From a virus (Duplodnaviria; Caudoviricetes), in IMG/VR virus record IMGVR_UViG_3300032038_000063, positions 6,907-70,906 of that record: 64,000 nt of DNA; one strand, given 5' to 3'. Made by a program: the position numbers and the translations under genes. A model generated the notes under the pieces. The model saw only the letters and a list, made by a program, of their open reading frames with translations, was not told where the DNA came from and ran no database searches. Positions within the stretch are counted from its first letter, which is position 1. The number at the start of each line of letters is the position of its first letter. Of this stretch, positions 4,191 to 8,793 are shown piece by piece.

Positions 4191-4451
4191 GTGATTCCGA
4201 TGGTCGAGGAAATACAGTCCATCCGAAGCACAATCGATGACCTACGAGACAGCGCCGAAGATATGGAGCGTGCGTTGAATGCCGTCGTGGATGACGGAAA
4301 CAGGCTCATGTCGCGCGTCTCGTGGCTAGAGGCCGAGAACGAAAAGCTGCGTGAGTTGATACGCACCGTGTGGCTTGCTGGTGACTTTCGCTCGTTTCTA
4401 GGTGTTGAAGAAATCAAGGAACGCATGCGCGAATTGGGAATCGAGGTATGA
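4191..4451 (+). CDS. ENxKLREL...RELGIEV family protein (copy 1)
   Basis: ENEKLRELIR ... MRELGIEV. Confidence 0.6.
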   Translation: MIPMVEEIQSIRSTIDDLRDSAEDMERALNAVVDDGNRLMSRVSWLEAENEKLRELIRTVWLAGDFRSFLGVEEIKERMRELGIEV

Positions 4452-4599: not shown

Positions 4600-4736
4600 G
4601 CACGATTATCAGGCGTGACTGCGTGTATTGCATCGACTTGCAAGAGCAGGGCGCACTCTGCGACCATCCATGCACGCTGTATGGTTGAGAGCCAATCGAC
4701 GCAGTGTGCAACGGATGCAGGAGGTACGAGCGCAGG

Positions 4737-5018
4737 ATGTCAACACGTGAAATGCTCGACAGGATACACGTGCTCGAAAAAAGATTAAAAGAATCAGAAT
4801 TTTGGCGAGAGAAATACGCAGACGAGATTATCCAACTTAAACCAGAAAACGCCAAGTTACGTGAGTTGGTACGGCACATGGGCGCATGTATCCAGTATTT
4901 GGACCGCACCGACAAGGACGGCGGATGCGTCCGCTGCCCATATCAGACAGTCGAGCACGACTGCGGATTCGAGCAGCGCATGGTCGAGCTGGGAATCTAT
5001 GTTGGCGGTAGCGTATGA
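4737..5018 (+). CDS. ENxKLREL...RELGIEV family protein (copy 2)
   Basis: ENAKLRELVRHM..C..CVRCPY...C..MVELGIYV. Confidence 0.6.
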   Translation: MSTREMLDRIHVLEKRLKESEFWREKYADEIIQLKPENAKLRELVRHMGACIQYLDRTDKDGGCVRCPYQTVEHDCGFEQRMVELGIYVGGSV

Positions 5019-5242
5019 GCCGCCCGCCCATAGCAAACGTTTTGCGCGAGTACGCTGATTTTCTCAAGAAAAGCGGAGAAGTGACCGACTACTACATACT
5101 CATCAACATCGCCGACGAGATAGACGCGGAGCATCGGCGGAGAATGTATCAACAGTCGCACGACATACGCAAGGCGTCGTGCAAGTATCTTGCGCCGGTC
5201 ATAGAGGACTACAGGCACGGGAGAAAGAGGAAGAGAAACTAA
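5015..5242 (+). CDS. Hypothetical protein
   Basis: ATGA and TAATG coupling to neighbouring genes. Confidence 0.55.
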   Translation: MSRPPIANVLREYADFLKKSGEVTDYYILINIADEIDAEHRRRMYQQSHDIRKASCKYLAPVIEDYRHGRKRKRN

Positions 5243-6348
5243 TGAATGAAATCAAATTGACAATCCGTCCATTTGAGATGGACACGTTGAAGGAAGCTGC
5301 AAAGAAAGTGCAGGAAGAGGCGGGCGAGGCTTTTGCAGAGTACGTAATCCTACAAGAGCAGCAGGACAGAAGTACCACAAGACTTGCCGACGAAATCGCC
5401 GACGTGATACAGGCGAGCTGCAATCTCGCGGCGCGATACAACCTCGATTTACAAGCGGCTATGCTGCGCTGCGAACAGAAGAATCGGTCGAGGGGAAGGT
5501 ATCCGATGGAGGAAAAGCATGTCGAGTCTTGCGGAATACGTGACGGCCACGATTGCGATTGCGGCGGGGATTGCGCTGATGCGCCTGCTGGAGTGGGCGT
5601 TCTACGGGAGAAATCGCCCGATGAGATGAGCGTAGAAGAGCTGATTAAGGCGCTTTACCTAGCCAATGGAAATGGCTACTGTGAAGATGGCTCATGTACA
5701 AAAACGCTTGGTGTTGATTGGTGCGGCATCTACCACACTTGCACAAGCTGCCGCGAACGCTTGCTCGACCTACTTGAGACGGCGTACAAGCAGGAAAAAG
5801 AAGGGTTACGGTGCGAGGAGTCATACCTTGCCGACGAGATAGTAAAGCGCGACAAGGAAATCGAGGGGCTGAAAAGGGAAATCGCCGACCTCACCCACAA
5901 GCGCGACGGATTGCGGAATCGTCTCACGGAGTTGAACGAAGCTGGCATCACGGGGTTGCACAGGCTCATGCGGGAGACTGTGGGCGAAGCGAAGAACGTC
6001 ACCCACAACGCACGTGTGTACATCGATAAGCAACAAGGGAGCAAGGATGAGCGGTACGGAGATTGCGGAAGCATTGGGTGGAATCATGGCGGCGATTGTG
6101 GTGCTCAATGTGCTAGAGAGCATCTTCTACCCGCAGAACCGCCCGCGCAAGAGATGAGCGAGCGAGAGAAGGTGTTAGAGCGGCTGCGTGGATATGACGT
6201 CTACATGGCGGAGACGCCGTCAGAGAACGCGAGCAGGCTGTTCGCATGCATAACAGGAAACAAAGATGCAGAGATAGCATGCGGGAACGACATCGAAGCC
6301 GTGCGTGACAAGCTGATTGAGCTGATAGGAGGCGTGAACGATGCCTAG
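5242..6348 (+). CDS. MazG-like NTP pyrophosphohydrolase domain in a long ORF with two further in-frame modules (internal starts at 5626 and 6154)
   Basis: KVQEEAGE...LADEIADVIQASCNL MazG-type acidic motifs; no in-frame stop until 6348. Confidence 0.65.
   Translation: MNEIKLTIRPFEMDTLKEAAKKVQEEAGEAFAEYVILQEQQDRSTTRLADEIADVIQASCNLAARYNLDLQAAMLRCEQKNRSRGRYPMEEKHVESCGIRDGHDCDCGGDCADAPAGVGVLREKSPDEMSVEELIKALYLANGNGYCEDGSCTKTLGVDWCGIYHTCTSCRERLLDLLETAYKQEKEGLRCEESYLADEIVKRDKEIEGLKREIADLTHKRDGLRNRLTELNEAGITGLHRLMRETVGEAKNVTHNARVYIDKQQGSKDERYGDCGSIGWNHGGDCGAQCAREHLLPAEPPAQEMSEREKVLERLRGYDVYMAETPSENASRLFACITGNKDAEIACGNDIEAVRDKLIELIGGVNDA
5519..5629 (+). CDS. Nested 36-aa membrane peptide A (MSSLAEYVTATIAIAAGIALMRLLEWAFYGRNRPMR)
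   Basis: GGAGG RBS 6 nt upstream; +1 frame inside 5242..6348; its TGA overlaps ATG 5626; paralog of 6047..6157. Confidence 0.65.
   Translation: MSSLAEYVTATIAIAAGIALMRLLEWAFYGRNRPMR
6047..6157 (+). CDS. Nested 36-aa membrane peptide B (MSGTEIAEALGGIMAAIVVLNVLESIFYPQNRPRKR)
   Basis: GGGAG RBS; same length, frame and LE..FY..NRP..R tail as peptide A; its TGA overlaps ATG 6154. Confidence 0.65.
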   Translation: MSGTEIAEALGGIMAAIVVLNVLESIFYPQNRPRKR

Positions 6349-6643
6349 TGAGTTTCCCCGACGCACGTGGACGGCTGAGGAAGTGGAAATCCTCAAGGAG
6401 ATGTACCCGATTCACGGCGCGGACGTGAGCAAGTGGGAGAAAAAGATAGAGAAATCCCGCAATGCGATTTACTCTAAGGTAGACAAGCTCGGCCTTTGCC
6501 GATACGACATAGACACGGGTGTCAGCGAAGAGCAGAGGGTCTTGCTCGCCAAGGCTTTCGTGGCGGTCTGCAAGAGAATCGGAATCGACGTGCATCGCGC
6601 AATCAGGGAGATAAATCAGCTCAAAAGAAGGAGGCTCATATGA
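6341..6643 (+). CDS. Myb/SANT-like HTH protein
   Basis: RRTWTAEEVEILKEMYP...KSRNAIYSKVDKLGL. Confidence 0.6.
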   Translation: MPSEFPRRTWTAEEVEILKEMYPIHGADVSKWEKKIEKSRNAIYSKVDKLGLCRYDIDTGVSEEQRVLLAKAFVAVCKRIGIDVHRAIREINQLKRRRLI

Positions 6644-6792: not shown

Positions 6793-7015
6793 GCGCGACC
6801 GTCCCAAGCAGCTCGACTACAAGGAGATTTTCGCCACGACAATGTACGAGATGATTTGCGAGATATTCCCCGCCCACGGAATCGAGCAGATGGACGAGGA
6901 GGAGTTCGACAAGATGGTGACGGAGATTACGCGCGAGCACTACTGGCCCATACTCGGCGAGTTCCGAAAGAAGAACGGGCTTAGTTTGACATCTGGCATA
7001 AGGTTCCGTTGGTAA
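6776..7015 (+). CDS. Hypothetical protein
   Basis: ORF ends just before a terminator. Confidence 0.55.
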   Translation: MASLIERDRPKQLDYKEIFATTMYEMICEIFPAHGIEQMDEEEFDKMVTEITREHYWPILGEFRKKNGLSLTSGIRFRW

Positions 7016-7884: not shown

Positions 7885-8793
7885 ATGGAGTATGAAGAGA
7901 TGGGCATAACCAACAAGCTCAACCTGCCGCAGCCGTTTGTAGATGCGGCCACCAATGACCACAAGTATAAGCACCACAGGTACAGCGTGACGGAGGTTCT
8001 AGGCGGTACGTGCGAGGCCGTCCTGAAGCGCAGGCACGCGGGCGAGGGAGAGGAAGACGTTGCGGACTCAGTCTGGCGTATACTAGGTTCCGCCGTCCAC
8101 AAGATTCTTGAGGAGGCAGAGTCAACCGAAAGTCAACTCCAAGAAAACTGGTTCAGCGTACCGATTGGAGACAACGGCTACGAATTGAGCGGTATATTCG
8201 ACCTGTACGACGGCGATACGCATACAGTCACGGACTGGAAGACGTGCGCGACGTGGAAAATCATATTCGGAGACTTTGAGGATTGGCGAAAGCAGACGCT
8301 GATGTACTGCTGGATGCTGAGAAAGCTCGGACTAGAAGCCGAAAGCGGCGAGATTGTCGCAATCATGCGAGACCACAACATGAGGAAGGCTAGGACTGAG
8401 AAGGATTACCCGCCGCATCCAGTCTACAAAATCGGCTGGGACTTCACATACGAGGACTTCGACCAAATCGAGAGCGACATCATGTTGTGGTTCTCGAAGG
8501 TCATGCACGAGGAGCAGCTTCCAGACTCGAAGCTCACGCCGTGCAGCCCAGAACAGCGTTGGCACAAGGATGACAAGTGGGCCGTCAAGAAGAAGGGCGT
8601 GAAGAGGGCTGTTCGAGTCTACTCAAGCAAGCAGGACGCATACCAACGTGCCGCTGGCGAGAACATGGAGGCCAAAGGCGAGCCGTTCTATGTCGAGGAG
8701 CGCAGGGGCGAGGATACCAAGTGCGAGTCGTACTGCTCGGTTGCCGAGTTCTGCCCATACTACCGAGCGTTGATGAAAGATAGAGAGCAATAA
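7885..8793 (+). CDS. PD-(D/E)XK exonuclease (Cas4/RecB-like phage recombination nuclease)
   Basis: YSVTEV..., ILGSAVHKILE, LSGIFDLYD..VTDWKT, C-terminal C..YCSVAEFC. Confidence 0.85.
   Translation: MEYEEMGITNKLNLPQPFVDAATNDHKYKHHRYSVTEVLGGTCEAVLKRRHAGEGEEDVADSVWRILGSAVHKILEEAESTESQLQENWFSVPIGDNGYELSGIFDLYDGDTHTVTDWKTCATWKIIFGDFEDWRKQTLMYCWMLRKLGLEAESGEIVAIMRDHNMRKARTEKDYPPHPVYKIGWDFTYEDFDQIESDIMLWFSKVMHEEQLPDSKLTPCSPEQRWHKDDKWAVKKKGVKRAVRVYSSKQDAYQRAAGENMEAKGEPFYVEERRGEDTKCESYCSVAEFCPYYRALMKDREQ

Follow-up and report, generated by a model that had tools for sequence, protein, structure and literature searches.

Does the long open reading frame (ORF) at positions 5242 to 6348 of a tailed-phage sequence encode one protein, a chain of small ones, or one protein with two further genes hidden inside it? 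The DNA analysed (the window, 64 kb long) spans positions 6,907 to 70,906 of IMG/VR virus record IMGVR_UViG_3300032038_000063 and makes up most of this complete 70.9-kb record, in which direct terminal repeats are present. An earlier note on the window had drawn attention to two ORFs of 36 amino acids (aa), here called pep1 and pep2, that lie out of frame inside the long one. We consider it likely that the locus is a case of real dual coding, in which the long frame (frame 0) would specify a three-domain protein (domains A, B and C) and each of its two interdomain linkers would hold a peptide mini-gene in the +1 frame.

The geometry given in the earlier note proved correct throughout. Both peptides lie in the +1 frame relative to the long ORF, both are 36 aa long and start M-S, and each has a ribosome-binding site of its own, which we located as GGAGG for pep1 and AGGGAG for pep2 (Table 1). 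Their stops (TGA at 5627-5629 and 6155-6157) overlap in-frame ATG codons of the long ORF at 5626 and 6154, neither of which is preceded by a Shine-Dalgarno (SD) sequence. From its start ATG at 5242 to its TAG at 6346-6348 the long ORF has no stop, the frame being open already from a GTG at 5179; the dual-coding total, put at about 220 bp in the earlier note, is exactly 222 nucleotides (nt), or twice 111. By exact calculation, frame 0 would be open by chance with a probability of 0.43 (pep1) and 0.31 (pep2) given the peptide sequence, and the +1 frame with a probability of 0.35-0.49 given the frame-0 protein. Chance alone would thus often give such an ORF geometry (P about 0.2-0.8), so that openness was discarded as evidence and the case rests on comparison with relatives.

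Conservation and selection of the embedded frames

The same layout recurs in about 20 uncultured relatives; in each the long frame is open throughout, over 330-418 aa and with 43-88% identity. Relatives' DNA was obtained for 15 distinct related loci, and because of the kinship among these sequences the counts below are not independent. We looked for the +1-frame peptides in these related genomes and found them. Of the 15 loci, 13 have an intact ORF of the pep1 type, as a 36/37-aa form in 10 and a longer 59-aa form in three, and pep2 is intact in all 14 loci that bear its cassette; every intact copy has an ATG, an SD-like motif and a stop. The start signals are retained in the 36/37-aa and the 59-aa forms of pep1 alike, and the purine motif of pep2 is mostly GGGAG, with GGAGAG in two of the 14 sequences. 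The peptide ATG is conserved even where the frame-0 residues spanning it vary (H/D, V/A). In the 59-aa variant, found in L004, L007 and L009, the frame-0 translation is longer than and unrelated to that of the 36-aa form, whereas the +1 translation retains an N-terminal MQ[ST]L.E, a strongly hydrophobic core and a C-terminal RNRP[KM][KR]. These longer cassettes lie at L004:552-731, L007:1829-2008 and L009:343-522, and their core is much longer and possibly forms a helical hairpin.

The substitution pattern changes frame at the overlaps. We pooled Nei-Gojobori counts over a codon alignment of 12 loci and compared the frames by a paired codon bootstrap. Within domains A, B and C, the ratio of nonsynonymous to synonymous differences is lowest in frame 0 (pN/pS 0.39-0.60, against 0.75-1.2 in the +1 frame), whereas the overlaps reverse this order (0.40 and 0.44 in the +1 frame, 0.77 and 1.14 in frame 0), as expected of the dual coding that the earlier note had described. 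For the pep2 overlap (14 sequences), omega is 0.42 in the +1 frame and 1.52 in frame 0, with a bootstrap difference at or below zero in 0.15% of replicates (p 0.0015); the embedded +1 frame of pep2 is under purifying selection. For the pep1 overlap (10 sequences) the values are 0.51 and 0.68, a trend that is not significant (p about 0.23). The comparison of both frames put forward in the earlier note gave a significant embedded-gene signal for pep2 and a lean in that direction for pep1, and the case for pep1 rests on its homology to pep2, on its conserved ATG and on relative L010.

That homology was claimed in the earlier note and is borne out by the alignment of the two families (hhalign probability 97.3%, E 2.7e-11); similarity at the DNA level spans the 3′ half of the two cassettes. 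They are also the sole two ORFs in the window that carry an NRPxx* end.

A relative that lacks the MazG-like domain

Relative L010 is the sole locus without domain A, the MazG-like domain, and the sole one in which a frame-0 stop was seen. Everything of domain A is gone except the first nine codons (MSEIKLTIH), which are joined directly to the SD sequence of pep1 (L010:1017-1090); frame 0 then meets a TAG within the cassette, and pep1 is intact. There it is a free-standing 36-aa gene, called as such by the source pipeline, and its stop shares an ATGA with the start codon of a 196-aa B-C protein, which lacks an SD sequence of its own. The intact peptide ORF in a broken frame 0 indicates that the peptide is kept independently of the host frame. 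Since B-C starts at the ATGA without an SD sequence, its translation would be coupled to that of pep1, and the ATGA junction can, judging from this arrangement, serve reinitiation.

The peptides have largely escaped annotation: a database of 5.8 billion proteins yielded only three gene calls for them, although nearly every relative with readable DNA has the ORFs. In P0156 and P0157, pep2 was called separately. Since gene callers do not allow one gene within another, they routinely overlook micro-proteins of this kind.

Maintenance of the long frame

The earlier note left two possibilities for the MazG-like part, namely that it had lost its stop or that it was fused on purpose, and both find support. 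More than 100 homologues of domain A are stand-alone proteins of about 85-130 aa in which the match ends at RGRY. As the earlier note had proposed looking for, the close stand-alone homologues (88-90 aa) stop one or two residues past this motif (RGRYE, RGRYGD, RGRYAD), which places the ancestral stop exactly at the start of the present pep1 cassette. In P0030, P0034 and P0171, the MazG-like domain is joined after RGRY to other, unrelated C-terminal parts, e.g. zinc-ribbon-like Cys clusters; P0030 has a PEMSE junction similar to the cassette end, and P0034 has a G/D/C/H-rich linker that could conceal another out-of-frame peptide.

The fusion appears to be maintained. A frame-0 stop can arise only where a T-ending peptide codon precedes a codon starting with AA, AG or GA. 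None of the 138 at-risk cells and none of the 12 at-risk columns had the stop-creating T, whereas T occurred in 24 of the 48 control columns (Fisher p 0.002) or in 14 of 38 when controls were limited to those with a non-T majority (p 0.012), although the test rests on few independent changes since the sequences are related; the T frequency at equivalent sites elsewhere in the phage is 0.17. Because stops in frame 0 are avoided, the fusion seems to be kept on purpose. Every length change among the relatives is a multiple of three: the longer pep1 variant has 23 additional codons, L006 lacks 15 codons, L018 has lost a segment that runs from the final part of pep1 into the beginning of B, and B-C linkers with and without pep2 differ by 34 codons. 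L007 and L017, with different variants of pep2 and C, both read ATAA at the junction before domain C; this keeps the peptide stop and loses the ATG, so that C would be producible only as part of B-C; P0020 likewise reads EIS at this junction, and L003 has GTG in place of the ATG. Where pep2 is absent (L002, L010 and P0023-25), B-C is one continuous protein. Taken together, the host frame appears to be held open across the overlaps.

These comparisons do not support the repeated peptide-plus-partner unit suggested in the earlier note. Domains B and C could not be aligned and have no similarity to each other, B-C is continuous without pep2, and C has no start codon of its own in L007 and L017. 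The repetition is therefore confined to the peptide cassette and does not extend to a partner.

Domains of the long protein

As a single sequence, domain A falls under the Pfam threshold (E 0.006-0.02, 17.3 bits against a cut-off of 27). A profile of 26 domain A homologues matches E. coli MazG (3cra, E 3.5e-8), HisE, YpjD and phage MazZ, with 1yvw at E 2e-7 and 7ody at 4.8e-5, and the acidic motif EExxE ... ExxD is invariant in the family alignment (E25, E26, E29, E51 and D54). The MazG label of the earlier note thus holds at the level of the family profile, which confirms the assignment to the MazG-like superfamily of all-alpha nucleoside triphosphate (NTP) pyrophosphohydrolases; the enzymatic activity is a prediction.

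AlphaFold2, run on a 22-sequence alignment, predicted helical domains at aa 16-83, 131-265 and 307-363. The two overlaps, at aa 89-122 and 264-305, had a local confidence score (pLDDT) below 50 and no secondary structure, so that both overlaps are predicted to fall in disordered interdomain linkers.

The start of domain B (window 5650-5760) carries a Cys cluster, C-x4-C ... W-C ... C-x2-C, followed by a coiled coil of about 100 residues; the spacing of the cluster differs among relatives, and the cluster is deleted in L018. The large proteins P0057, P0058 and P0065 (343-387 aa) contain two or three domain-C-like modules (ERHKVVCKLR...ACGNDLEE.RDRLIHLLGG), and these multiple copies indicate that domain C is a reusable unit.

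Properties of the peptides

Both peptides have a short acidic N-terminus, a hydrophobic stretch of about 23 residues and a basic tail, F-Y-x-x-N-R-P-R-R. Their hydrophobic character, stated in the earlier note, is evident from 15-residue Kyte-Doolittle maxima of 2.0 and 2.4. The positive-inside rule predicts that they would insert into the host membrane with the N-terminus outside and the C-terminus inside. Polar residues are conserved near the end of the hydrophobic stretch (E25 in pep1; N21, E24 and S25 in pep2, which has seventeen invariant residues in all), and these suggest helix-helix contacts of the peptides with themselves or with a host membrane protein. Neither peptide has a conserved Cys that could belong to a lipobox, and their ESM Atlas scores (0.81-0.82) are at chance level. 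That the peptides are translated and inserted into the membrane, and what role they might have, we infer from sequence. As a guess made with low confidence, they might be early membrane-directed proteins of host takeover, exclusion or a toxin-like kind.

Alternative explanations

Several points weigh against real dual coding and have to be set beside the evidence above. The ORF geometry is what chance would often give, the pep1 selection contrast is not significant and the stop-avoidance test counts few independent events. pep1 is damaged in two relatives, by the 15-codon deletion in its core in L006 and by truncation in L018, and pep2 is absent from L002, L010 and P0023-25, from which both peptides appear dispensable. 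No peptide family was matched in Pfam, PHROGs, NCBIfam or the ESM Atlas, the best hit being PHROG 1172 at E 0.21. Gene calls consisting of domain C only exist, including P0164 on an 8.4-kb contig, a possible split form; the two on contigs of 1.3 and 1.8 kb look like contig-edge artefacts, since P0026 and P0157 equal L016 sequences. On a rival reading the fusion is incidental: A (with a junk tail), pep1, B-C, pep2 and C would be made separately by termination-reinitiation at the ATGA junctions, and the 368-aa protein would be a tolerated by-product of the lost stop. The stand-alone A homologues that end just past RGRY, the start of B-C from an ATGA without A in L010, an ATG after pep1 that is conserved in 13 of 13 sequences, the C-only calls and the chance openness of frame 0 (P about 0.3-0.4 per cassette) agree with this. 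We nevertheless regard it as unlikely, given the absence of a stop-creating T from all at-risk columns (p 0.002-0.012), the ATA that replaces the ATG before a conserved C in L007 and L017, the continuity of B-C where pep2 is absent, the indels that are all in frame, and the occurrence of the sole frame-0 stop where A is deleted.

A more sceptical reading takes the +1 ORFs as non-genic, chance open frames whose conservation stems from constraint at the nucleotide level or in frame 0. It would draw on the chance openness of the +1 frame (P 0.3-0.8), the pep1 contrast, the lack of a family match and the missing or damaged peptides in some relatives. We think it quite improbable, because in the pep2 overlap omega is 1.1-1.5 in frame 0 against 0.42 in the +1 frame, the peptide ORF of L010 is intact while frame 0 is broken, the 59-aa variant retains the peptide features over an unrelated frame-0 sequence, the SD-like motif and ATG persist despite frame-0 changes (H/D, V/A) and there is no Rfam match. 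Very improbable in our judgement is that the ORFs are translational couplers only, delivering ribosomes in the manner of upstream ORFs to the SD-less ATGs of B and C while their peptide sequence is irrelevant. An ATGA is present in 13 of 13 pep1 and 11 of 14 pep2 sequences, no SD sequence precedes 5626 or 6154, and B-C expression in L010 must depend on coupling; but the amino-acid constraint (17 invariant pep2 residues, including the polar N21, E24 and S25 in the helix), the hydrophobic character retained across three cassette types and the pep2 that is still kept where ATAA removes the coupling (L007, L017) speak against this reading. A programmed +1 frameshift into the peptide frame, giving tail-anchored isoforms of A and of B (each ending in the transmembrane segment) instead of or besides free peptides, is hardly credible. 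The +1 frame is open for at least 37 codons upstream of both peptide ATGs and an SD-like GGAGG lies just upstream, as in prfB, yet no stop, hungry codon or slippery site was found at 5490-5525 or 6020-6050, omega in the +1 frame upstream is about 1.2, the upstream open length varies freely among relatives, and the cassette of L010 works without an upstream ORF. Frameshifting and hopping were rejected for want of such a signal and because each cassette has its own canonical SD-ATG.

Layout and surroundings of the locus

Table 1. Elements of the embedded-peptide locus, in positions of the window
Element	Position	Strand	Remarks
Long frame-0 ORF, 368 aa	5242..6348	+	Order: domain A, linker 1, domain B, linker 2, domain C
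Domain A	5242..5517	+	Small all-alpha domain, MazG-like NTP pyrophosphohydrolase by profile; ends in RGRY
SD sequence of pep1, GGAGG	5508..5512	+	6 nt ahead of the ATG
pep1, 36 aa	5519..5629	+	Predicted single-pass membrane peptide; +1 frame, over linker 1 (long-ORF aa 93-129)
Domain B	5626..6046	+	Cys cluster and long coiled coil; ATG 5626 overlaps the pep1 stop (ATGA)
SD sequence of pep2, AGGGAG	6036..6041	+	5 nt ahead of the ATG
pep2, 36 aa	6047..6157	+	Paralogue of pep1; +1 frame, over linker 2 (long-ORF aa 269-305)
Domain C, 64 aa	6154..6348	+	Helical; in-frame ATG 6154 overlaps the pep2 stop

Around the locus, small early genes follow one another on the + strand, among them those for a dUTPase, an HNH endonuclease and a PD-(D/E)XK nuclease. 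Pfam places the dUTPase at 1010-1531 (E 7e-25), the endonuclease, of the homing type (HNH_3/NUMOD4), at 2485-2994, and the PD-(D/E)XK nuclease, with a DUF2188 segment, at 7885-8793. Two small ORFs upstream (4191-4451 and 4704-5018) have a coiled-coil ENxKLREL motif in common, followed by Cys residues. On relatives' contigs, a Lar restriction-alleviation protein (PF14354) and a protein of the Acb2/Tad1-hairpin family (PF24729) are encoded near the homologous ORF, a hint of an early anti-defence region there. Scans for promoters, terminators and Rfam families gave nothing inside the locus; these scans were crude, and they found no promoter-like site on either strand in 5000-6500 and no Rfam match.

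The tape-measure gene of the phage has its nearest matches among phages that infect Gram-positive hosts. No close relatives were found among named phages by blastn, and protein-pattern scans of IMG/VR gave no match. GTDB genomes gave no match either, so that no host can be assigned.

A putative mechanism and history

On the preferred reading of real dual coding, frame 0 would yield one protein with a MazG-like NTP pyrophosphohydrolase domain, a Cys-cluster/coiled-coil domain and a small helical domain, and each disordered linker would hold a +1 mini-gene made up of an SD sequence, an ATG, a transmembrane helix of about 23 residues, a basic NRPRR tail and a stop. Initiation at 5242 would carry ribosomes through both cassettes, and initiation at the internal SD/ATG sites would give the 36-aa peptides. 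Since the length of each cassette is a multiple of three and frame 0 has no stops in it, the host ORF is unbroken. Selection in the overlaps would act on the peptide sequence in the +1 frame and, in frame 0, for openness only. The ATGA junctions may additionally permit termination-reinitiation, which would be needed in the relative without domain A.

As for history, we infer an ancestral order of A, pep1 and B-C with ATGA coupling. The stop of A would then have been lost, so that A reads through the cassette into B, and a frame-neutral cassette of the pep1 type would have been duplicated into the B-C linker to give pep2. Tentatively, and with more doubt than conviction, we suggest that the peptide unit may be an 'ORF-transparent' micro-gene cassette, self-contained from SD sequence and ATG through the transmembrane peptide to its stop, with a length divisible by three and no stop in the host frame. 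Such a cassette, read as a disordered linker by the host frame and expressing a membrane peptide from the +1 frame, could be copied into interdomain linkers without breaking the host gene.

Discussion

The best-known counterpart is Rz1 of phage lambda, which lies wholly inside Rz in the +1 frame with its own start, both products being made. Like Rz1, pep1 and pep2 are embedded in the +1 frame of a double-stranded DNA (dsDNA) phage gene and are predicted to be small membrane-targeted proteins. However, Rz1 is a lipoprotein with a lipobox Cys, encoded in a lysis cassette inside the gene of the i-spanin, whereas pep1 and pep2 have no lipobox and lie in an early nucleotide-metabolism region, as two paralogues, within a MazG-like fusion ORF whose overlapped parts are predicted disordered linkers and not folded or periplasmic domains. 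An embedded o-spanin of the Rz1 type was rejected on account of the missing lipobox Cys and the neighbouring dUTPase, HNH endonuclease and PD-(D/E)XK nuclease genes.

Type I toxins of the Fst, BsrG and TxpA type, from Gram-positive bacteria and their prophages, are 30-40 aa long, with one transmembrane helix and a charged C-terminal tail. The likeness of pep1 and pep2 to them (at most 60 aa, one predicted transmembrane helix, a basic tail) is a resemblance only; the crude scans found no antisense RNA or promoter at the locus, and there is no family match. Domain A is alike to the MazG-like and related all-alpha NTP pyrophosphohydrolases (PF03819, PF12643; 3cra, 7ody) by profile and acidic residues. 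Unlike most MazG-like homologues, which stand alone at 85-130 aa, it has no stop here and is followed by two further domains.

Short single-pass membrane lysis proteins are encoded in the +1 frame by E within D of phiX174 and by L across the coat and replicase genes of MS2 (reviewed in PMC8227390). pep1 and pep2 are likewise short, predicted to be single-pass, and placed +1 in another gene. However, E and L cause lysis and belong to genomes of 3.5-5.4 kb under strong size pressure, whereas pep1 and pep2 have 36 aa, an early position in a 71-kb genome and no sequence similarity to either. In general terms, Willis and Masel (bioRxiv 10.1101/229690) describe an enrichment of intrinsic disorder in overlapping-gene regions, and the overlapped parts of the host protein are predicted to be disordered here as well. 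What sets the present case apart from that trend, as broadly put there, is that the constrained partner is an embedded hydrophobic peptide and that the cassette is duplicated into a second linker.

The locus is phage overprinting in a new form, and the peptide-partner repeat is not supported. It provides a clean, comparatively validated example of overprinting in a 71-kb dsDNA phage, in which the embedded frame bears the amino-acid constraint, the host frame appears to be kept only open as a predicted disordered linker, and the cassette is duplicated within one gene. The locus offers simple genetic handles, because one synonymous substitution can inactivate either frame and spare the other, and as the peptides lie outside known families, their biological role would be new information. 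To judge from this locus, phages may hide membrane peptides preferentially in interdomain linkers. If the ORF-transparent cassette is true, it would be a translation-level analogue of intein or intron insertion, adding genes to a phage without additional intergenic DNA.

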